Virus record (IMG/VR): IMGVR_UViG_2778261165_000008
Length of the DNA: 12,705 bases
Reading direction: 5' to 3' (one strand)
Source of the DNA: a virus
Taxonomy: Duplodnaviria; Heunggongvirae; Uroviricota; Caudoviricetes
A model generated the notes under the pieces. It was not told the origin of the DNA. It did not search any database and worked only from the letters and a program-made list of their open reading frames with translations. A program made the position numbers and the translations under genes. This document shows positions 1,529 to 12,705 of this stretch, piece after piece (the stretch's first letter is position 1; each line of letters starts with the position of its first letter).

Positions 1529-1859
1529 TACGGAAGAATTTCACTGGTTACCAGAGGATGGAATGAAAACAGAAAATAAACCATCGATAAAAACTGTAAG
1601 ATTTGGCGATGGTTATGAGCAACGAAGTCCAAATGGACTTAATCATTCTCTGCGCGTTTTCACCTGTGATTTCAAAGTTGAGGCGAATGAACGTGATTCA
1701 TTTGAAAAATTTTTAGCCCGGCATGAAGGCTATAAATCTTTTTTTTGGCGCCCGCCGGGTATTAACAGAAAAATCAGAGTGGTGTGTCGAACGTGGTCAG
1801 CGACAGAACATATCACCTATACCGATTTTTCGTGTCAGTTTGACGAAGTGGTGATCTGA
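1521..1859 (+). CDS. M: Minor tail protein M (lambda gpM family)
   Basis: 112 aa containing VRFGDGYEQRSPNGLN and FFWRPP, matching lambda gpM as I recall it. The GTG start at 1521 overlaps the H stop; the N-terminal FHW....GM appears to align with lambda FRW....GM, supporting the long start. An alternative ATG at 1563 has a GAGGA Shine-Dalgarno. The stop overlaps the L start (TGATG). Confidence 0.88.
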   Translation: MANTEEFHWLPEDGMKTENKPSIKTVRFGDGYEQRSPNGLNHSLRVFTCDFKVEANERDSFEKFLARHEGYKSFFWRPPGINRKIRVVCRTWSATEHITYTDFSCQFDEVVI

Positions 1860-2557
1860 TGCAGGACATACAACAGGAAACGCTGAATGAATGCATTCGT
1901 GCGGAGCAGTCGGCCAGCGTGGTGCTCTGGGAAATCGACCTGACCGAGGTAGGCGGGGATCGCTACTTTTTCTGTAATGAGCAGAACGAAAAAGGTGAGT
2001 CTGTCACCTGGCAGAGTCGGCAGTATCAGGCCTATCCCATTCAGGGGAGTGGATTTGAGATGAACGGCAAGGGCAGTGCTGCCCGTCCGACACTGACGGT
2101 CTCTAACCTGCACGGCATGATCACCGGGATGGCGGAAGATCTGCAGAGTCTGGTCGGCGGAACGGTGGTCCGGCGTAAGGTTTACGCCCGCTTTCTGGAT
2201 GCGGTGAACTTCGTCAACGGAAACAGCGAAGCCGATCCGGAGCAGGAGGTGATCAGCCGCTGGCGCATCGAGCAGTGCAGCGAACTGAGCGCGGTCAGTG
2301 CCTCTTTTGTACTGTCCACGCCGACTGAAACGGATGGCGCTGTTTTTCCGGGACGTATCATGCTGGCCAACACCTGCACCTGGACCTATCGCGGCGATGA
2401 GTGCGGTTATAGCGGTCCGGCGGTCGCGGATGAATATGACCAGCCGACGTCCGATATCACGAAGGATAAATGCAGCAAATGCCTGAGTGGCTGTAAGTTT
2501 CGCAATAATGTCGGCAACTTTGGCAGCTTCCTTTCCATTAACAAACTTTCGCAGTAA
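1859..2557 (+). CDS. L: Minor tail protein L (lambda gpL family), with C-terminal cysteine cluster
   Basis: 232 aa, the same length as lambda gpL. The ATG overlaps the M stop by 1 nt. The C-terminal region carries Cys residues (CTWTYRGDECGYSG, CSKCLSGCKF) consistent with the known Fe-S cluster of gpL. Confidence 0.9.
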   Translation: MQDIQQETLNECIRAEQSASVVLWEIDLTEVGGDRYFFCNEQNEKGESVTWQSRQYQAYPIQGSGFEMNGKGSAARPTLTVSNLHGMITGMAEDLQSLVGGTVVRRKVYARFLDAVNFVNGNSEADPEQEVISRWRIEQCSELSAVSASFVLSTPTETDGAVFPGRIMLANTCTWTYRGDECGYSGPAVADEYDQPTSDITKDKCSKCLSGCKFRNNVGNFGSFLSINKLSQ

Positions 2558-2562
2558 ATCCC

Positions 2563-3306
2563 ATGACAGAGACAGAATCAGCGATTCTGGCGCACGCCCG
2601 GCGATGTGCGCCAGCGGAGTCGTGCGGCTTCGTGGTGAGAACGCCGGAGGAGGAAAGATATTTTCCCTGCGTGAATATCTCCGGTGAGCCGGAGGAGTAT
2701 TTCCGGATGTCGCCGGAGGACTGGCTGAGTGCAGAAATGCAGGGAGAGATTGTGGCGCTGGTCCACAGCCACCCCGGTGGTCTGCCCTGGCTGAGTGAGG
2801 CCGACCGGCGGCTGCAGGTACAGAGTGATTTGCCGTGGTGGCTGGTCTGCCGGGGGGCGATTCATAAATTCCGCTGTGTGCCGCATCTCACCGGGCGGCG
2901 CTTTGAGCACGGGGTAACGGACTGTTACACGCTGTTCCGGGACGCTTACCATCTGGCGGGAATTGAGATGCCGGATTTTCATCGCGGGGATGACTGGTGG
3001 CGTAACGGTCAGAATCTCTATCTGGATAATCTGGAGGCCACAGGGCTGTATCAGGTGCCGTTGTCAGCGGCGCAGCCGGGCGATGTGCTGCTGTGCTGTT
3101 TTGGTTCATCGGTGCCGAATCATGCCGCCATTTACTGTGGTGACAGCGAGCTGCTGCACCATATTCCTGAACAACTGAGCAAACGAGAGAGGTACACCGA
3201 CAAATGGCAGCGACGCACACACTCCCTCTGGCGTCACCGGGCATGGCACGCATCTGCCTTTACGGGGATTTACAACGATTTGGCCGCCGCATCGACCTTC
3301 GAGTGA
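2563..3306 (+). CDS. K: Tail assembly protein K (JAB/MPN metalloprotease-like N-terminus plus NlpC/P60-like C-terminal domain)
   Basis: 247 aa. ALVHSHPGG with downstream S..D resembles the JAMM motif. A Cys (DCYTLF) and His (NHAAIYCG) pair resembles an NlpC/P60 catalytic core. The 3' end overlaps the I start by 103 nt in a different frame. Confidence 0.82.
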   Translation: MTETESAILAHARRCAPAESCGFVVRTPEEERYFPCVNISGEPEEYFRMSPEDWLSAEMQGEIVALVHSHPGGLPWLSEADRRLQVQSDLPWWLVCRGAIHKFRCVPHLTGRRFEHGVTDCYTLFRDAYHLAGIEMPDFHRGDDWWRNGQNLYLDNLEATGLYQVPLSAAQPGDVLLCCFGSSVPNHAAIYCGDSELLHHIPEQLSKRERYTDKWQRRTHSLWRHRAWHASAFTGIYNDLAAASTFE

Positions 3307-3845
3307 AAACGGGGTCCGAAGCCATCCGGGCGCTGGCCATGCAGATCCCGGCATTTCGTCAGAAACTGAGCGACGGCTGGTACCAGGTACGCATTGCCGG
3401 GCGTGATGCAGGTGAAACCGAATTGTCTGCCCGTCTTAATGAGCCGCTGGAAAATGGTGCCGTGATCCATATCGTGCCGCGTCTGGCAGGAGCCAAAAGT
3501 GGCGGTGTGTTTCAGGCTGTGCTGGGGGCGGCTGTTATGGCGGTTGCTATATGGATGCCGGGGGTAGGAATTATGGCGAGTAATCTGCTGTTTTCTCTCG
3601 GTGCCAGTATGACGCTTGGCGGTGTTGCACAGATGCTGGCCCCTAAACCCAAAACCCCCCGCACACAGACAACGGATAACGGCAAACAGAATACCTATTT
3701 TTCTTCACTGGATAACATGGTTGCTCAGGGCAATGTTCTGCCTGTTCTGTACGGTGAAATGCGTGTGGGGTCGCGGGTGGTTTCTCAGGAGATCAGCACG
3801 GCAGACGAAGGGGACGGTGGTCAGGTTGTGGTGATTGGTCGCTGA
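3204..3845 (+). CDS. I: Tail assembly protein I (lambda gpI family)
   Basis: 213 aa starting MAATHTLPLASPGMARICLYGDLQRFGRRIDLRVKTG, which matches lambda gpI as I recall it. It has a hydrophobic Gly/Ala-rich middle and the conserved C-terminus NGKQNTYFSSLDNMVAQGNVLPVLYGEMRVGSRVVSQEIS. A GAGAGAGG purine-rich stretch lies upstream of the ATG. Confidence 0.9.
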   Translation: MAATHTLPLASPGMARICLYGDLQRFGRRIDLRVKTGSEAIRALAMQIPAFRQKLSDGWYQVRIAGRDAGETELSARLNEPLENGAVIHIVPRLAGAKSGGVFQAVLGAAVMAVAIWMPGVGIMASNLLFSLGASMTLGGVAQMLAPKPKTPRTQTTDNGKQNTYFSSLDNMVAQGNVLPVLYGEMRVGSRVVSQEISTADEGDGGQVVVIGR

Positions 3846-3863
3846 TGCAAAATGTTTTATGTG

Positions 3864-3891
3864 AAACCGCCTCCGGGCGGTTTTGTCGTTT
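3864..3891 (+). terminator. GC-rich hairpin (8-bp stem AAACCGCC / GGCGGTTT, loop TCCG) followed by a T-rich tail, between I and J
   Basis: Inverted repeat read directly from the sequence at 3864..3883, followed by TGTCGTTT. It may be an attenuator or an mRNA-stability element rather than a full terminator. Confidence 0.3.
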
Positions 3892-3905
3892 ATGGAGCAT
3901 GACGA

Positions 3906-6900
3906 ATGGGTAAAGGCAGCAGTAAGGGGCATACCCCGCGCGAAGCGAAAGATAACCTGAAATCCACGCAGCTGTTGAGTGCGATTGATGCCATCAGCGA
4001 AGGGCCGATTGAAGGTCCGGTGGACGGATTAAAAAGCGTGCTGCTGAACAGTACGCCGGTGCTGGACAGTGAGGGGAATACCAATATATCCGGTGTCACG
4101 GTGGTGTTCCGGGCAGGTGAGCAGGAGCAGACACCGCCGGAGGGATTTGAATCCTCCGGCTCCGAGACGGTGCTGGGTACGGAAGTGAAATATGACACGC
4201 CGATCACCCGGACCATCACGTCGGCAAACATCGACCGTCTGCGCTTTACCTTCGGTGTGCAGGCACTGGTGGAAACCACCTCAAAGGGGGACCGGAATCC
4301 GTCGGAAGTCCGCCTGCTGGTTCAGATACAGCGTAACGGTGGCTGGGTGACGGAAAAAGACATCACCATTAAGGGCAAAACCACCTCGCAGTATCTGGCC
4401 TCGGTGGTGGTGGATAACCTGCCGCCGCGCCCGTTTAATATCCGGATGCGCAGGATGACGCCGGACAGCACCACAGACCAGCTGCAGAACAAAACGCTCT
4501 GGTCGTCATACACCGAAATCATCGATGTGAAACAGGGCTACCCGAACACGGCACTGGTCGGCGTGCAGGTGGACTCGGAGCAGTTCGGCAGCCAGCAGGT
4601 GAGCCGTAATTATCATCTGCGCGGGCGTATTCTGCAGGTGCCGTCGAACTATAACCCGCAGACGCGGCAATACAGCGGTATCTGGGACGGAACGTTTAAG
4701 CCAGCATACAGCAACAACATGGCCTGGTGTCTGTGGGATATGCTGACCCATCCGCGCTACGGCATGGGGAAACGTCTTGGTGCGGCGGATGTGGACAAAT
4801 GGGCGCTGTATGTCATCGGCCAGCATTGCGATCAGTCGGTGCCGGACGGTTTTGGCGGCACGGAGCCGCGCATCACCTGTAATGCGTACCTGACCACACA
4901 GCGCAAGGCGTGGGATGTGCTCAGTGATTTCTGCTCTGCGATGCGCTGTATGCCGGTATGGAACGGGCAGACGCTGACGTTCGTGCAGGACCGACCGTCG
5001 GATAAGGTGTGGACCTATAACCGCAGTAATGTGGTGATGCCGGATGATGGTGCGCCGTTCCGCTACAGCTTCAGCGCCCTGAAGGACCGCCATAATGCCG
5101 TTGAGGTGAACTGGATTGACCCGAATAACGGCTGGGAGACGGCGACAGAGCTTGTTGAAGATACGCAGGCCATTCTCCGTTACGGTCGTAACGTCACGAA
5201 AATGGATGCTTTTGGCTGTACCAGCCGGGGGCAGGCACACCGCGCCGGGCTGTGGCTGATTAAAACAGAACTGCTGGAAACGCAGACTGTGGACTTCAGC
5301 GTGGGCGCAGAAGGGCTTCGCCATGTGCCGGGCGATGTCATTGAAATCTGTGATGATGACTATGCGGGTATCAGCATCGGCGGGCGCGTGCTGGCGGTAA
5401 ACAGCCAGACCCGGACGCTGACGCTCGACCGTGAAATCACGCTGCCATCCTCCGGTACCACGCTGATAAGCCTGGTTGACGGAAGTGGCAATCCGGTCAG
5501 CGTGGAGGTTCAGTCCGTCACCGACGGCGTGAAGGTGAAAGTGAGCCGTGTTCCTGACGGTGTTGCTGAATACAGCGTGTGGGGGCTGAAGCTGCCGACG
5601 CTGCGCCAGCGCCTGTTCCGCTGCGTGAGTATCCGTGAGAACGACGACGGCATGTATGCCATCACCGCCGTGCAGCATGTACCGGAAAAAGAAGCCATCG
5701 TGGATAACGGGGCGCACTTTGACGGTGACCAGAGCGGCACGGTGAATGGTGTCACGCCGCCAGCGGTGCAGCACCTGACCGCCGAAGTCACCGCAGACAG
5801 CGGGGAATATCAGGTGCTGGCGCGCTGGGACACGCCGAAGGTGGTGAAGGGTGTGAGCTTCCTGCTCCGTCTGACCGTAACAGCGGATGACGGCAGTGAG
5901 CGGCTGGTCAGCACGGCCCGGACGACGGAAACCACATACCGCTTCAGGCAGCTGGCGCTGGGGCGTTACATGCTGACGGTCCGGGCGGTAAATGCGTGGG
6001 GACAGCAGGGCGATCCGACGTCGGTATCGTTCCGGATTGCCGCCCCGGCAGCGCCGTCGCGGATTGAGCTGACGCCGGGCTATTTTCAGATAACTGCCAC
6101 GCCGCATCTTGCGGTTTATGATCCGACGGTACAGTTTGAGTTCTGGTTCTCGGAAACGCGGATTGCGGATATCAGGCAGGTTGAAACCACAGCCCGCTAT
6201 CTTGGTACGGCGCTGTACTGGATAGCCGCCAGTATCAATATTAAGCCGGGCCATGATTATTATTTTTACGTTCGCAGTGTGAACACAGTCGGCAAATCGG
6301 CATTCGTGGAGGCTGTCGGTCGGGCGAGCGATGATGCGGAAGGTTACCTGGATTTTTTCAAAGGAGAAATCGGGAAAACACATCTGGCCCAGGAGCTGTG
6401 GACGCAGATTGATAACGGTCAGCTTGCGCCTGACCTGGCTGAAATCAGGACGTCCATTACGAATGTCAGCAATGAAATCACGCAGACCGTCAATAAAAAA
6501 CTGGAAAATCAGAGCGCGGCAATCCAGCAGATACAGAAAGTTCAGGTTGATACAAATAATAACCTGAACAGCATGTGGGCCGTGAAACTGCAGCAGATGA
6601 AGGACGGACGCCTTTATATTGCGGGTATCGGAGCCGGTATTGAGAATACGCCAGCAGGTATGCAGAGTCAGGTGCTTCTGGCTGCTGATCGGATTGCGAT
6701 GATTAATCCTGCGAATGGCAACACAAAGCCGATGTTTGTTGGTCAGGGCGATCAGATATTCATGAACGACGTGTTCCTGAAACGCCTGACGGCTCCGACC
6801 ATTACCAGCGGCGGTAATCCTCCTGCATTTTCCATGACACCGGACGGAAAGCTGACCGCTAAAAATGCAGATATCAGTGGCAGTGTGAATGCGAACGCCG

Positions 6901-7385
6901 GGACGCTCAACAACGTTACGATAAATGAGAACTGTCAGATTAAAGGGAAACTGTCAGCCAACCAGATTGAAGGCGATATTGTCAAAACAGTGGGTAAGGC
7001 TTTCCCGCGGGACTCCCGGGCACCGGAGCGGTGGCCATCAGGGACCATTACCGTCAGGATTTATGACGATCAGCCGTTTGACCGGCAGATTGTTATTCCG
7101 GCGGTGGCATTCAGCGGTGCTAAACATGAGAGAGAGCATACTGATATTTACTCCTCATGCCGCCTGATAGTGAAGAAAAATGGTGCTGAAATTTATAACC
7201 GTACCGCGCTGGATAATACGCTGATTTACAGTGGTGTTATTGATATGCCAGCTGGTCACGGCCACATGACGCTGGAGTTTTCGGTGTCAGCATGGCTGGT
7301 AAATGACTGGTATCCCACAGCAAGTATCAGCGATTTGCTGGTTGTGGTGATGAAGAAAGCCACCGCAGGCATCAGTATCAGCTGA
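3906..7385 (+). CDS. J: Tip attachment / host specificity protein J (central tail fibre, lambda gpJ family)
   Basis: 1159 aa. The N-terminus [25 protein letters not shown] and long stretches further in match lambda gpJ as I recall it. The C-terminal roughly 300 aa, the receptor-binding region in lambda, look clearly more divergent from my recollection of lambda J. Confidence 0.95.
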
Positions 7386-7403
7386 ATTTTATAACCCATA
7401 TAC

Positions 7404-7428
7404 GGGCGCCAGAAATGGCGCCTTTTTT
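7404..7428 (+). terminator. Rho-independent terminator downstream of J
   Basis: Palindromic GGCGCC stem (7405..7410 and 7417..7422) with loop AGAAAT, followed by TTTTTT at 7423..7428, 19 nt after the J stop. Confidence 0.6.
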
Positions 7429-7452
7429 ATTGCAGAAAAGCGAGAGGTAATT

Positions 7453-8052
7453 ATGCGTAAAGTTTGTGCAGCCATTTTGTCCGCAGCCATCTGTCTGGCC
7501 GTATCCGGTGCGCCTGCATGGGCGTCTGAGCAGCAGGCCACACTGAGCGCAGGGTATCTTCATGCCCGTACGAACGCTCCCGGCAGCGAAAATCTGAACG
7601 GGATTAACGTGAAATACCGTTATGAGTTTACGGACACGCTGGGGCTGATTACGTCATTCAGTTATGCCAACGCTGAAGATGAGCAAAAAACGCATTACAG
7701 CGATACCCGCTGGCATGAGGATTCCGTGCGTAATCGCTGGTTCAGCGTGATGGCGGGGCCGTCTGTGCGCGTGAATGAATGGTTCAGCGCGTATGCGATG
7801 GCGGGTATGGCTTACAGCCGTGTGTCGACTTTCTCCGGGGATTATATCCGCGTAACTGACAACAAGGGGAAAACGCACGATGTGCTGACCGGAAGTGATG
7901 ACGGTCGCCACAGCAACACGTCTCTGGCGTGGGGAGCTGGCGTGCAGTTTAACCCGACCGAATCCGTGGCCGTTGACGTCGCTTATGAAGGCTCCGGCAG
8001 CGGTGACTGGCGTACCAACAGTTTCATCGTTGGTGTCGGTTATAAATTCTGA
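7453..8052 (+). CDS. lom: Lom/Ail/PagC/OmpX-family outer membrane beta-barrel protein (lambda Lom-like moron)
   Basis: 199 aa with an N-terminal signal peptide (MRKVCAAILSAAICLAVSGAPAWA then SEQ). The body has alternating aromatic/hydrophobic beta-strand patterns and ends in a C-terminal Phe (GVGYKF), typical of outer-membrane barrels. It sits between J and stf as in lambda. A GAGAGG Shine-Dalgarno lies 5 nt upstream. Confidence 0.9.
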   Translation: MRKVCAAILSAAICLAVSGAPAWASEQQATLSAGYLHARTNAPGSENLNGINVKYRYEFTDTLGLITSFSYANAEDEQKTHYSDTRWHEDSVRNRWFSVMAGPSVRVNEWFSAYAMAGMAYSRVSTFSGDYIRVTDNKGKTHDVLTGSDDGRHSNTSLAWGAGVQFNPTESVAVDVAYEGSGSGDWRTNSFIVGVGYKF

Positions 8053-8078
8053 TTAGCCAGGTAACACAGTGTTATGAC

Positions 8079-8106
8079 AGCCCGCCGGTTCAGGCGGGCT
8101 TTTTTG
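8079..8106 (+). terminator. Rho-independent terminator downstream of lom
   Basis: Stem AGCCCGCC (8079..8086) pairing with GGCGGGCT (8093..8100), loop GGTTCA, followed by TTTTT at 8101..8105. Confidence 0.65.
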
Positions 8107-8116
8107 TGGGGGGAAT

Positions 8117-11100
8117 ATGGCAGTACGGATTTCAGGTGTACTGAAAGATGGCGCAGGTAAGCCGATACAAAACTGCACCATTCAGCTAAAGGCCAGGCGC
8201 AACAGCACCACGGTGGTGGTGAACACAGTGGCCTCAGAAAACCCGGATGAAGCCGGGCGTTACACAATGGACGTCGAGTATGGTCAGTACAGCGTCAGTC
8301 TGTTGGTGGAGGGATTCCCGCCGTCACACGCCGGGATTATCACCGTATATGAGGACTCAAAGCCGGGCACACTGAATGATTTCCTCGGTGCAATGACGGA
8401 GGATGATGTCCGGCCAGAGGCACTGCGCCGTTTTGAACTGATGGTGGAAGAGGTGGCGCGTAACGCGTCCGCAGTGGCACAGAACACGGCAGCCGCGAAG
8501 AAGTCAGCCAGTGATGCCAGCACATCTGCCCGTGAGGCGGCAACCCATGCGACTGATGCTGCAGGCTCAGCACGCGCAGCCAGCACGTCAGCCGGACAGG
8601 CCGCGTCGTCGGCTCAGTCAGCGTCTTCCAGCGCAGGAACGGCATCAGCAAAGGCCACTGAAGCATCAAAAAGTGCTGCCGCTGCAGAGTCCTCAAAAAG
8701 CGCGGCGGCCACCAGTGCCGCTGCGGCAAAAACGTCAGAAACGAATGCGGCAGCGTCACAACAATCAGCAGCCACTTCAGCATCCACCGCGACCACGAAA
8801 GCGTCAGAAGCTGCCACCTCAGCCCGGGATGCGTCGGCTTCAAAAGAGGCGGCAAAATCATCAGAAACGAGCGCAGCCTCGAGCGCCAGCAGCGCAGCTT
8901 CCTCGGCAACGGCGACAGCAAATTCTGCGAAGGCGGCAAAAACGTCCGAGACGAACGCCAAGGCTTCTGAAACGGCAGCGGGACAGAGTGCCTCAGCTGC
9001 GGCAGGCTCAAAAACAGCGGCTGCGTCGTCTGCCAGTGCCGCGTCAACAAGTGCCGGGCAGGCCTCAGCCAGTGCCACCGCCGCCGGAAAATCGGCAGAA
9101 AGTGCTGCATCGTCCGCTTCAACAGCCACAACGAAGGCTGGCGAAGCCGCTGTACAGGCCAGCGCAGCAGCGAGGTCTGCTTCCGCAGCGAAGACATCCG
9201 AAACGAATGCGAAAGCGTCGGAAACCCGTGCAGAATCCTCAAAAACGGCAGCCGCATCGTCCGCCAGTTCGGCAGCGTCATCGGCATCATCTGCGTCTGC
9301 TTCAAAAGATGAGGCGACCAGACAGGCGTCAGCAGCGAAGGGCAGCGCCACGACGGCATCCACGAAAGCAACAGAGGCGGCAGGCAGTGCGACGGCAGCA
9401 TCTCAGAGCAAAACTGCTGCTGAATCCGCTGCGACCCGTGCGGAAGCTGCTGCTGATCGTGCTGAAGAGATTGCCGGTGCAGTTGCGATGGAAGACGCAA
9501 GCCTTACAACTAAAGGTGTTGTGAAACTTAGCAGTGCTGTTGATAGCACCAGTGAATCGCTGGCCGCAACGCCAAAAGCAGTTAAAGCAGCCAATGACAA
9601 TGCGAATAGCAGGGTGCCATCTAACCGAAAAGTTAACGGAAAAGCACTGACTGCGGATATAACATTAACGCCGAAAGATATTGGTACTTTAAATTCAGTA
9701 ACGATGTCTTTCTCTGGCGGGGCTGGGTGGTTCAAACTGGCTACGGTTACCATGCCACAAGCGAGTTCCATCGTTTACATCGCATTGATTGGTGGCGCTG
9801 GTTACAACGTCGGTTCCCCACATCAGGCAGGCATTTCAGAACTGGTTCTACGAGCAGGCAATGGAAACCCCAAAGGAATTACCGGGGCTTTGTGGAAGCG
9901 TACAGCCGTCGGATTAACGAATTTCGCCTGGATCAACACATCCGGCGATACATATGATATTTACGTTGAGATTGGCAATTATGCGACTCGTGTAAATATC
10001 CATTGGGATTGTACTGCAAATGCGACAGTTTCTATTTATACATCGCCAACATATTCAGCGAGTAAGCCTTCCAGCGTTACCGATGGTGTTGTTTATACGA
10101 TGTATAGCACACATCAGAAACCGACGCCGTTAGATATTGGAGCACTGCCAACAACCGGAGGAACAGTTTCAGGTCCGTTGTCTGTTACAGGTGGATTAAC
10201 TGGTTCATTGAATGGTAATGCAAGTACAGCCACGAAATTGCAGACGGCAAGATCTATCGGTGGAGTTGTTTTCGACGGTTCTGCAAATATTAACCTTCCA
10301 GGTGTAAACACTACGGGTAATCAGAACACCACTGGTAATGCTGCAACTGCTACAAAACTTCAGACTGCAAGAAAAATATCCGGTGTTCCATTTGATGGTT
10401 CTACTGATATCACTTTAACCGCCGCGCATGTGGCTGCTTTTGCCAGAAGAGCAACGGATGCGTATGCCGATGCGGATGGGGGCGTTCCATGGAATGCCGA
10501 ATCAGGCGCTTACAATGTCACCCGCTCTGGCGACAGCTATATTCTGGTTAACTTCTATACCGGAGTCGGAAGTTGCCGGACCTTGCAGATGAAGGCGCAT
10601 TACAGAAATGGTGGTCTGTTCTACCGTTCTTCAAGAGACGGTTATGGTTTTGAAAGTGGTTGGGCGCAGCTTTACACCTCGGCTCATCCTCCTGCAGAGT
10701 TTTATCCAGTCGGTGCACCAATCCCGTGGCCATCAGATACCGTTCCGTCTGGTTATGCCCTGATGCAGGGGCAGACTTTTGACAAATCTGCCTACCCAAA
10801 ACTTGCAGCCGCTTATCCGTCAGGCGTGATCCCTGATATGCGTGGCTGGACGATTAAGGGCAAACCTGCCAGTGGTCGAGCCGTATTATCTCAGGAACAG
10901 GACGGCATTAAATCGCACACCCACAGCGCCAGCGCATCCAGTACGGATTTGGGGACGAAAAACACATCGTCGTTTGATTACGGCACTAAATCCACGAATA
11001 ACACCGGGGCGCATACCCATAGTGTTAGCGGTACGGCTGCTTCAGCCGGTGCACATACCCATTCGATGACATTTGTTTCAGGTGGTTCCAGTGGTGCTCC

Positions 11101-11344
11101 GGGAAGTGGAGCATCTGATTATTCTAAATACAGTGTTAACACTTCTTCTGCAGGCGCTCATACGCACTCTGTATCGGGTACTGCTGCAAGCGCAGGTGCA
11201 CACGCACATACTGTGGGTATTGGTGCTCATACGCACTCGGTTGCGATTGGCTCACATGGACACACCATCACCGTTAACGCTGCTGGTAACGCGGAAAACA
11301 CCGTCAAAAACATCGCATTTAACTATATTGTGAGGCTTGCATAA
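8117..11344 (+). CDS. stf: Side tail fibre protein (lambda Stf family), mosaic
   Basis: 1075 aa. The N-terminus [38 protein letters not shown] and the C-terminus from GAPIPWPSD to [11 protein letters not shown] match lambda Stf as I recall it. Between them are an Ala/Ser/Thr-rich repeat block, a divergent AT-richer domain and His-rich HxH repeats. The stop overlaps the tfa start (TAATG). Confidence 0.93.
8465..9480 (+). repeat. Ala/Ser/Thr-rich low-complexity coding repeats inside stf, with recurring [13 protein letters not shown]-type units
   Basis: Three similar DNA units lie near 8717..8760, 8933..8975 and 9187..9228. The biased composition produces long stop-free alternate frames on both strands (ORF-track entries 8340..9500, 8511..9524 and 8614..9363). 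Confidence 0.8.
10205..10415 (+). repeat. Two copies of a phage tail-fibre repeat motif (G-N-A[20 protein letters not shown]) inside stf
   Basis: [28 protein letters not shown] and [28 protein letters not shown] are encoded about 120 nt apart, with synonymous divergence at the DNA level. Confidence 0.75.
10911..11270 (+). repeat. His-rich HxH repeat region in the Stf C-terminal domain
   Basis: Repeated [24 protein letters not shown] and SHGHT motifs, including duplicated [17 protein letters not shown] units. Similar HxH motifs are known from distal tail fibre tips, for example in T4 gp37. Confidence 0.7.
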
Positions 11345-11919
11345 TGGTATTCAGAATGAGTGAACAACCACGGACCATAACAATTTATAATCTGCTGGCC
11401 GGAACTAATGAATTTATTGGTGAAGGTGATGCATATATTCCGCCTCATACAGGTCTGCCAGCAAACAGTACCGATATTGCACCGCCAGATATTCCGGCAG
11501 GCTTCGTGGCTGTTTTCAACAGTGATGAGGCATCGTGGCATCTCGTTGAAGATCATCGGGGTAAAACGGTTTATGACGTGGCTTCCGGCGACGCGTTATT
11601 TATTTCTGAACTCGGTCCGTTACCGGAAAATGTTACCTGGTTATCGCCGGAAGGGGAGTTTCAGAAGTGGAACGGCACAGCCTGGGTGAAGGATACGGAA
11701 GCAGAAAAACTGTTCCGGATCCGGGAGGCGGAAGAAACAAAAAACAACCTGATGCAGGTAGCCAGTGAGCATATTGCGCCGCTTCAGGATGCTGCAGATC
11801 TGGAAATTGCAACGGAGGAAGAAATCTCGTTGCTGGAAGCATGGAAAAAGTATCGGGTATTGCTGAACCGTGTTGATACGTCAACTTCACAGGATATTGA
11901 ATGGCCAGCACTGCCGTAG
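11344..11919 (+). CDS. tfa: Tail fibre assembly protein (Tfa family, TfaR/TfaQ-like)
   Basis: 191 aa, with [50 protein letters not shown] near the N-terminus. It closely resembles the E. coli K-12 Rac/Qin Tfa proteins as I recall them and is translationally coupled to stf. Confidence 0.9.
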
Positions 11920-12016: not shown

Positions 12017-12520
12017 TTATATGTCAGGTGTCTGAAGTTTTGCTTTGGCTCTTAAAATGGTTTGCCGCGAGGTTTTGAATTCCCGGGCAATGGCACTTAT
12101 ACTTACACCTGACTTAATTCGTTCGAATACCACCTGTTTCTGTTCTTCATTTAACACAGGTGGTCGACCAAAACGTTTCCCTGCGCCGCGGGCTCTTACT
12201 ATCCCGGAATGAGTGCGTTCAAGTAAAAGGTCTCGTTCAAATTCAGCGACTGCTGAAATTACTTGCATCATCATTTTTCCTGTTGGACTGGTCAGGTCAA
12301 TGCCCCCCAATGCTAAGCAATGCACTCTGATACCTGTTTCGGTCAGTTGTTCCACTGTTTTCCTGATATCCATTGCATTACAACCAAGGCGATCCAGTTT
12401 TGTCACAATCAATTGATCACCACATTTCAGGCGAGCAAGCAACCGGTTAAAACCAGGACGCTCACTGGTTGCTGCTGAGCCCTGAGAGATCCCCTCATAA
12501 TTTCCCCAAAGCGTAACCAT
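12017..12520 (-). pseudogene. pin: Site-specific DNA invertase (serine recombinase, Pin/Hin/Gin family), N-terminally truncated and lacking the catalytic Ser segment
   Basis: The 167-aa minus-strand ORF contains [36 protein letters not shown] and a C-terminal helix-turn-helix, all serine recombinase hallmarks. About 25 to 35 N-terminal residues, including the G-Y-x-R-V-S-T catalytic motif, are absent, and the first residues (MVTLWGNY) do not fit the family. The in-frame sequence upstream carries a stop. Confidence 0.8.
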
Positions 12521-12705
12521 GTGTGAATAAATTTTGAGCTAGTAGGGTTGCAGCCACGAGTAAGTCTTCCCTTGTTATTGTGTAGCCAGAATGCCGCAAA
12601 ACTTCCATGCCTAAGCGAACTGTTGAGAGTACGTTTCGATTTCTGACTGTGTTAGCCTGGAAGTGCTTGTCCCAACCTTGTTTCTGAGCATGAACGCCCG
12701 CAAGC
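12490..12705 (-). other. Unassigned stop-free frame running in from the window's 3' edge on the minus strand (C-terminal fragment of an unknown protein, or non-coding junction DNA)
   Basis: A minus-strand frame is open for about 70 codons (…[37 protein letters not shown], then stop) and ends about 30 nt inside the truncated pin ORF in a different frame. I could not assign a family. Confidence 0.2.

Follow-up and report, generated by a model that had tools for sequence, protein, structure and literature searches.

lom as probable exchangeable cargo of a terminator-bounded slot between J and stf in a Rac-type lambdoid prophage of Escherichia coli

The window analyzed in this work, a stretch of DNA of 12.7 kb (12,705 nucleotides), is filled by the tail module of a lambdoid prophage, as judged from the list of its open reading frames and their Pfam matches. 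The tail genes occur in the order partial H, M, L, K, I, J, lom, stf, and tfa (11344-11919), after which a resolvase-type invertase gene is found on the minus strand. Gene J (3906..7385, plus strand) encodes the tail tip attachment or host-specificity protein of 1,159 amino acids, with matches to Phage-tail_3, Ig_J, FNIII-A_GpJ, Ig_GpJ_C, and other Pfam families. The next late gene beyond lom, stf (8117..11344, plus strand), encodes a side tail fiber of 1,075 amino acids that matches phage_tail_N, Collar, and Phage_fiber. The region between these two genes has a compact layout, in which the J stop codon is followed by 18 nt, a hairpin with a T-run (T1), a 21-nt leader with a Shine-Dalgarno sequence, lom, 26 nt, another hairpin with a T-run (T2), and, after 11 nt, the ATG of stf.

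This DNA belongs to a well-represented type of prophage. Positions 6900-8600 are 100% identical to several E. coli chromosomes, and in E. coli 2018-06-4CC the identical locus sits at the Rac prophage site, preceded by ydaY and followed by tfaR, pinR, ydfK, uspF, and ompN. The tail module can be assigned to a Rac-type lambdoid prophage of E. coli. Inverted repeats that might delimit a Pin-invertible segment were looked for near tfa and pinR, and none were found. The J-lom-stf stretch was matched in 4,816 of the 5,426 complete E. coli genomes (~89%), at a median of 2 and a maximum of 15 places per genome. The gene lom, its location between J and stf, and both terminators are already known in public records: the window Lom is present in RefSeq (WP_001233121.1), and the GenBank record of phage mEp460 (JQ182728) annotates both flanking hairpins as rho-independent terminators. 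The lom gene of lambda is a textbook example.

The lom coding sequence (7453..8052, plus strand) specifies 199 amino acids plus a stop codon, and its product is predicted to be a Sec-exported, 8-stranded outer-membrane barrel of the Ail/Lom family. The match to the Pfam family PF06316 (Ail/Lom) covers the entire protein, with residues 1-199 aligned on profile positions 1-199 (E = 5.7e-125; 415 bits, the gathering score being 23), and PHROG 108 (phrog_108), "Lom outer membrane protein," was matched at E = 4e-108. In the PDB, the window Lom matches lambda Lom, to which it is 43% identical, as well as Yersinia Ail and E. coli OmpX, the latter two at E values of ~1e-19 over the whole mature protein. 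The scores against the NCBIfam models for Rck and OmpX were under the equivalog cut-offs, which places the protein in a separate Lom branch and argues against its being an Rck or OmpX orthologue. By inspection, the N terminus (encoded by 7453-7524) has the features of a signal peptide, namely, MRK, a hydrophobic core of 17 residues, and an AWA|SEQQ cleavage site in agreement with the -3/-1 rule, with no lipobox; the C terminus reads GVGYKF and ends on an aromatic residue. An AF2 model of moderate confidence (pLDDT 69), in which the first strand is poorly resolved, contains 8 strands with long L2 and L3 hairpins, and places residues 2-18 as a helix outside the barrel. Its top Foldseek matches were Ail (3qrc/3qra) and OmpX (1qj9), at E values of ~1e-8 to 1e-9. 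The window Lom thus has the fold and the aromatic C terminus (...GYKF) of the Ail, OmpX, PagC, and Rck barrels but differs from them in its L1-L3 loops, which are longer and variable. Homologues vary mostly in the signal peptide and in loops L1 and L2, and some of them combine a lambda-like N-terminal module with a remainder of the type found in the window (W-type).

The 21-nt leader of lom (7432..7452, plus strand) contains the Shine-Dalgarno sequence GAGAGG at 7442-7447, 5 nt before the ATG, for which an anti-Shine-Dalgarno duplex of -7.2 kcal/mol was calculated; the duplexes of J, L, K, and tfa are all weaker than this one, and only that of stf, among the genes compared, is stronger. The leader is almost invariant in W-type relatives, and homologous short leaders are present in lambda-type and M-type loci. 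An earlier sequence-only reading of this DNA had proposed that lom has its own strong Shine-Dalgarno sequence and encodes a Lom/Ail-family barrel with a signal peptide, and had suggested a comparison with the Ail and OmpX families. These proposals agree with the data above.

The same reading had placed a terminator on either side of lom, and this is well borne out. T1 (7404..7431, plus strand), 3' of J, consists of a stem at 7404-7423, a T6 run at 7423-7428, and ATT at 7429-7431; its hairpin has 8 pairs, 6 of them GC, and a GAAA loop. T2 (8079..8105, plus strand), 3' of lom, consists of a stem at 8079-8100 and a T6 run at 8100-8105, with 8 pairs, 7 of them GC, and a loop of 6. No other terminator-like site of the window ranked above either of them. 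Folded alone, T1 and T2 reach -15.7 and -18.2 kcal/mol, respectively, with a z score of -4.0 in both cases and none of 200 shuffles as good. When a stringent definition was applied (stem of 7-8 bp, at least 6 GC pairs, and a T6 tail), T1 and T2 were the only sites on both strands of the window; a first-order Markov simulation gave a chance expectation of 0.02 such sites per window, with a probability of ~0.005 for two or more. On the minus strand, T-runs are absent from both positions, so that T1 and T2 are oriented with the late operon.

Comparison of related loci revealed that these structures are conserved. Among 15 distinct variants of T1, 94% of cells pair, and three of the eight pairs show compensatory double changes, whereas the pairing and covariation scores seen in the real alignment were not attained by any of 500 shuffles. 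One variant has an inverted loop (GAAA to TTTC). For T2, inspection showed that the outer stem is retained in four sequence versions. A match of T2 to the Rfam family Trp_leader was below threshold (27 bits against a gathering score of 41), and this identity was rejected in favor of a generic resemblance to terminators. In lambda and in M-type loci, a hairpin of other sequence is found at the position of T1. The fact that the position is kept while the sequence is swapped, as seen in lambda and in M-type, Gifsy-1, and L062-type loci, argues for selection on the structure and the U-tract. T1 and T2 are consequently predicted to be strong, conserved, plus-strand intrinsic terminators.

Clear information on what is variable at this locus comes from relatives in which stf follows J directly, without lom, namely, the phages ev017 and Tritos and the remnant of a prophage carried by E. 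coli LB14b. In the lom-less junction, the J stop codon is followed by the identical T1 hairpin (GGGCGCCAGAAATGGCGCC), by TTTTTTATT, and then by TGTGGAGTGA(A/G)T-ATG, which contains the start codon of stf. The segment that is present in the window and absent from these empty sites spans 7432..8104 (plus strand; 673 nt, with an ambiguity of +/-2 nt caused by TT at both ends) and comprises the 21-nt leader, lom, the 26-nt trailer, the T2 hairpin, and most of the T2 T-run. Upon in silico deletion of 7432-8104, the junctions of ev017 (83% identity) and LB14b (91% identity) were restored over 238 nt, and in LB14b the blast joint lies at about 7431. The variable unit is thus the leader, lom, the trailer, and T2. 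T1, in turn, belongs to the end of J and hence to the backbone, because the lom-less relatives keep an identical copy of it. Of 60 evenly sampled phage records that carry this stf 5' block, about 8 lack the lom 3' end. Since the three empty sites share the same T1, the same junction, and the same stf 5' allele, they may reflect one event spread by recombination, and repeated gain and loss of lom is therefore not claimed.

A block at 7950..8500 (plus strand), which extends from the last ~100 nt of lom through the trailer and T2 into the 5' end of stf, is common to lambda and to all three lom alleles, and most W, M, and L loci, which represent these alleles, have one and the same intergenic region downstream of lom. 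Identity to lambda amounts to 77-93% in this block. It is 32-68% in most segments of the lom body, apart from one conserved strand with up to 80%, and ~50% toward the end of J. A mosaic joint is located inside the 3' end of lom. The proposal that lom is an independently acquired cassette thus holds in part: the gene is absent from the same site in relatives, but T1 lies outside the variable unit and the T2 region is common to different alleles.

Other prophages provide examples of the same architecture with different contents. At the Gifsy-1 locus STM2589.1n, a terminator, a short leader, an ORF for an unrelated secreted protein of 80 amino acids (phrog_2243), and a T2-like terminator, whose hairpin has its 3' arm in common with T2, precede stf. 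In L062-type loci, which represent a second lom context, another version of T2 is found directly before stf. T2 may therefore belong to the slot rather than to lom, given that such hairpins precede stf together with other cargo and with another lom context. Insertion sequences have also entered this region, with an IS4 in the J-stf slot of Lambda_4B5 and an IS200C right after T2 in CFT073. Homologues of lom exist elsewhere as well, in Gifsy-2 between M and L beside sodC and in VT2-Sakai in an unrelated context, each followed by a terminator, which supports the mobility of the gene family. What recurs is the slot itself, in which J is followed by a terminator, then by cargo with a short leader, and, directly before stf, by another terminator; lom is most likely exchangeable cargo in this conserved, terminator-bounded J-stf slot within a Q-antiterminated late operon.

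The closest characterized locus is that of lambda, which has the same J-lom-stf order, a hairpin with a T-run after J, a leader of ~20 nt with GAGAGG, and a near-identical T2 and stf start. It differs from the window in the moderate similarity of the Lom proteins noted above and in its T1 hairpin, which is of different sequence and weaker (-9.7 against -15.7 kcal/mol in the window). Phages mEp460 and 434 have the same W-type lom allele and the same leader as the window, with 88% identity for the 434 Lom, but carry different J receptor-binding domains and T1 stems with compensatory substitutions.

Does lom qualify as a moron? Morons have been defined as units of promoter, gene, and terminator with deviant GC content (PMC3594210). 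With classic morons such as HK97 gene 15 (Juhala et al. 2000; Cumby et al. 2012), lom has in common that it is an extra gene for an envelope protein in a late operon, absent from relatives and followed by a terminator, but the promoter and the deviant GC content of those morons were both not seen here. A sigma-70 consensus scan detected no promoter near lom. In a sigma-70 position weight matrix scan of the 200 nt upstream of lom, the best site scored 5.9 bits with a poor -10 element, the chance level for ~1,000 trials; the matrix frequencies follow published compilations and the scan is heuristic, and both scans are blind to activator-dependent or non-sigma-70 promoters. The promoter prediction that had been suggested for this gene thus returned nothing above chance, and the same matrix scan found nothing better upstream of lambda lom. 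The -10-like hexamers TATAAC (7391-7396) and TTTATT (7426-7431) were rejected, as they are without a -35 element and would place the transcription start at or inside T1. Furthermore, only 21 nt separate the tail of T1 from the lom ATG, so that the leader within the indel is too short to hold a promoter.

The base composition of lom resembles that of its neighbors, with GC contents of 0.553 for lom, 0.561 for J, and 0.588 for the first 600 nt of stf, GC3 values of 0.61 for lom and 0.66 for J, and no step at lom in the GC profile. From the definition of a moron, presence or absence at the same site and a downstream terminator (T2, which is possibly the slot's) were thus found, whereas, at the level of sequence, its own promoter and a deviant base composition were not. 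The sequence-only reading of lom is therefore partly supported: the gene was rightly seen as accessory, but its self-containment and a classic moron architecture find no support at the level of sequence.

The lambda late operon is transcribed from pR' by a Q-modified RNA polymerase, which ignores terminators. By extension from lambda biology, Q-modified polymerase would read through T1 and T2 during lytic growth, and lom would be mainly a late gene, carried on the late transcript and translated from a ribosome-binding site of its own. As long as the prophage is repressed, T1 would shield lom, and T2 would shield stf, from stray transcription; stf would be reachable only by transcription that passes both T1 and T2. 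Expression of lom in lysogens, if any, would come from read-through of T1 or from a weak promoter outside the reach of the scans. Lom would act at the cell surface. Its probable role there, for which lambda Lom is the model, is to mask, late in infection, the porin that the phage itself uses as receptor. Taken as a whole, this explanation, which combines exchangeable cargo, late expression by read-through, and a role at the surface, is considered fairly probable.

Published information on the expression of lambda lom is consistent with late read-through, but it is conflicting and not decisive. lom has repeatedly been reported among the genes expressed from the lambda prophage (PMC7067206; PMC1151598; PMC12366544), so that, in lambda at any rate, either a promoter or read-through must supply the transcript. 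In an array study, lom went undetected in lysogens, and little was said to be known of its promoter (PMC2147009). According to a 2025 study that cites the ribosome profiling of Liu et al. 2013, Lom levels are low in lysogens and increase dramatically at late times of infection (PMC12366544). The lom orthologue of Phi24B was found to be equally expressed in lysogens and induced cells (PMC3342100); its genomic context is different from the J-stf slot. lom is dispensable for plaque formation, and lom, stf, and tfa are counted among the dispensable genes (PMC10695390). In RNA-seq compendia, lomR_1 is among the least-expressed genes of E. coli K-12. The K-12 transcriptome was rejected as a test of lom expression since the native 5' end of lomR has been lost through fusion to the ynaA pseudogene; lomR is also split by an IS5.

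Two other explanations of this architecture need to be weighed. According to the one closest to the sequence-only reading, lom is a classic moron that has its own promoter, is expressed independently in the repressed prophage, is insulated by T1 and terminated by T2, and serves as a lysogenic conversion gene for adhesion or serum resistance. Support for it comes from the literature, where lambda lom is described both as prophage-expressed and as a moron (PMC3594210; PMC7067206; PMC1151598), from the Phi24B data (PMC3342100), although obtained in another context, and from the link between lambda lom and adhesion to buccal cells (Vica Pacheco 1997, as cited by later authors). The presence/absence polymorphism, the homologues at other phage positions, and the good Shine-Dalgarno sequence of lom fit it as well. 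It is at odds with the lack of any sigma-70-like promoter within 200 nt, the 21-nt leader contained in the indel, and the strong terminator that ends 22-25 nt before the lom ATG, and with the assignment of T1 to the backbone and the absence of a GC anomaly. The array study in which lom was undetected in lysogens (PMC2147009) and the reported strong increase of Lom late in infection (PMC12366544) also speak against it, and we regard this explanation as unlikely.

The other explanation concerns the hairpins, which might not be terminators in the main but RNA-processing or 3'-stabilizing hairpins, or joints for recombination at the DNA level. The two ends of the indel lie in the two T-runs, blast joints lie at ~7431 and ~8108, the insertion sequences of CFT073 and Lambda_4B5 entered at or near these sites, and the T1 variant with the inverted loop would also be in keeping with such a role. 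The canonical structure of a GC-rich stem followed by T6 on the sense strand only, the compensatory changes that preserve the stem, and the recurrence of a hairpin at the same position with replaced sequence in lambda, M-type, Gifsy-1, and L062-type loci are what would be expected of terminators, so that a primarily different function is judged to be very improbable. The roles as terminators and as processing or recombination sites are compatible and do not exclude each other. The explanation of lom as late-expressed cargo between two intrinsic terminators is the preferred one.

With respect to function, adhesion or serum resistance can be attributed to the window Lom only as an association at the level of the family. 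Adhesion to buccal cells was tied to lambda lom by Vica Pacheco (1997), as that study is cited in PMC3594210 and PMC1151598. Plasmid-expressed lambda Lom was shown to confer strong protection against lambda-vir and none against T7, and the proposal was made that lambda Lom acts late in infection to prevent phage from adsorbing non-productively to kin (PMC12366544). The chains of PDB entry 9wso include lambda Lom and the maltoporin LamB, an observation that concerns the chain composition only; a literature search found no paper mentioning this entry. LamB is the lambda receptor and is bound by lambda J. The newer evidence on lambda Lom points to receptor masking rather than adhesion, and a role of the window Lom in host adhesion is considered less likely. 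T5 offers a functional analogy, since its Llp lipoprotein blocks FhuA: Llp and Lom are both phage envelope proteins encoded near receptor-binding genes, and Llp limits the adsorption of its own phage. The two differ in that Llp is a lipoprotein and Lom a barrel.

A potential target for the window Lom is suggested by the neighboring adhesion proteins. The receptor-binding domain of the window J, formed by its last 135 amino acids, is 42% identical to that of lambda J and has its best PDB match in A8 gpJ; an A8 gpJ entry (9wcb) contains OmpC too. In contrast to lambda J, which binds LamB, the window J is thus nearer to the OmpC-associated A8 gpJ. The N terminus of Stf matches lambda Stf in 9e7m, and its tip resembles T4 gp37. 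With a J domain like that of A8 and a Stf tip like that of T4 gp37, both of which may target OmpC, a mask directed at this porin is conceivable by analogy. The association between lom alleles and J receptor-binding domains is strong, but at least 7 clusters of these domains are found together with the W-type lom, and most of the association is explained by linkage through the adjacency of the two genes alone. The more general notion that the J-stf junction of lambdoid phages is a dedicated, promoterless, terminator-bounded slot whose cargo is expressed with the late genes and consists, in the case of Lom, of receptor masks, with lambda-type Lom for LamB and W-type Lom for OmpC, and that these proteins are not lysogenic-conversion adhesins, is put forward tentatively and is doubtful in its full form. 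Such masks would keep progeny off lysing or infected kin.

Beyond annotation hygiene, the finding has little significance. It carries a caution, in that terminators at both ends do not make a gene an independent unit. As T1 belongs to J, hairpins precede stf regardless of the cargo, and no promoter was detected, expression in the prophage state, and hence a conversion role in a defective prophage, should not be assumed for lom. If the receptor-mask reading holds for the allele of the window, lom would be a late gene that benefits the phage and not a virulence factor, and the thousands of lom copies in pathogenic E. coli would, if this is true, be interpreted differently.

The slot between J and stf, which comprises a terminator after J, a short leader with its cargo (lom in the window) and a terminator ahead of stf, collects other events as well. 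An equivalent slot lies between J and stf in Gifsy-1 (locus L010, 1489-1807), where the cargo differs: it is STM2589.1n, an 80-aa protein of family phrog_2243 with a signal peptide that is unrelated to the Lom protein of the window. STM2589.1n is likewise preceded by a terminator and a short leader and followed by a terminator resembling T2, the intrinsic terminator found after lom in the window (8079-8105). In Lambda_4B5, the slot holds an IS4 instead of lom (L008, 368-1714), in CFT073 an IS200C insertion is located immediately 3' of T2 (L093, 3250-3708), and in phage D2 lom is reduced to a remnant that retains the last ~55 codons (L004, 2478-2687).

The lom gene is itself internally mosaic. 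Four homologues in alignment A2, namely, P0081, P0094, P0096, and P0104, combine a signal peptide and L1 loop similar to those of the lambda- and M-type alleles with a remainder of the W type, the allele present in the window. The L2 loop occurs in the same alignment in two alternative versions, ANAEDEQKTH and AGDKNRQLTR, that assort independently.

Variation also extends to the terminator hairpins. In some relatives (L025, L032, and L041), the loop of T1, the terminator after J, is inverted and the hairpin reads GGGCGCCA-TTTC-TGGCGCC, as compared to -GAAA- in the window (7404-7422); this is a hairpin-inversion variant in which the stem is kept. An alternative downstream context, found at L062 and ~20 other W- or M-type loci, begins 10 nt 5' of the lom stop codon. 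These loci carry a perfect 14-bp hairpin (ACGCAGGTTCATCC...GGGGTGAACTGCGT; L062, 2140-2175) with a weak T-tract, which is placed after lom and ahead of a second T2-type terminator. A match to the Rfam Trp_leader family that covers the lom 3' end and T2 (window 8025-8107; 27.3 bits, E = 0.006) remained below the gathering score of 41 and most likely reflects a generic resemblance to terminators.

Further upstream, GC content and GC3 are 0.41-0.44 and 0.35-0.39, respectively, in the partial H gene and M (35-1859), whereas L, K, I, and J (1859-7385) show values of 0.56-0.59 and 0.57-0.67. This sharp step suggests that the M/L boundary is a mosaic joint. A 625-aa ORF called on the minus strand, antisense to J (4506-6383), is probably a by-product of the codon bias of J.

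At the other end, the minus-strand pinR-type invertase gene (12017-12705, including the adjoining IS) has lost its 5' end. Homology to intact Rac loci ends at 12481, beyond which the window consists of an IS4-like ISVsa5 (IS10-type) element. The remaining invertase ORF encodes 167 aa, its first residue corresponding to position 42 of the resolvase profile, and is preceded by in-frame stop codons. The best full match was obtained for two E. coli strains from chicken, Z1323CEC0004 and Z1323CEC0002.

The distal tip of Stf (residues 862-1075; window 10700-11341) matches the receptor-binding tip of the T4 long tail fibre protein gp37 (PDB 2xgf) with an E value of 5.9e-87. For the J receptor-binding domain, the closest match is A8 gpJ, and one of the PDB entries of A8 gpJ also contains OmpC. 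OmpC may be the target of both prophage adhesins, J and Stf.
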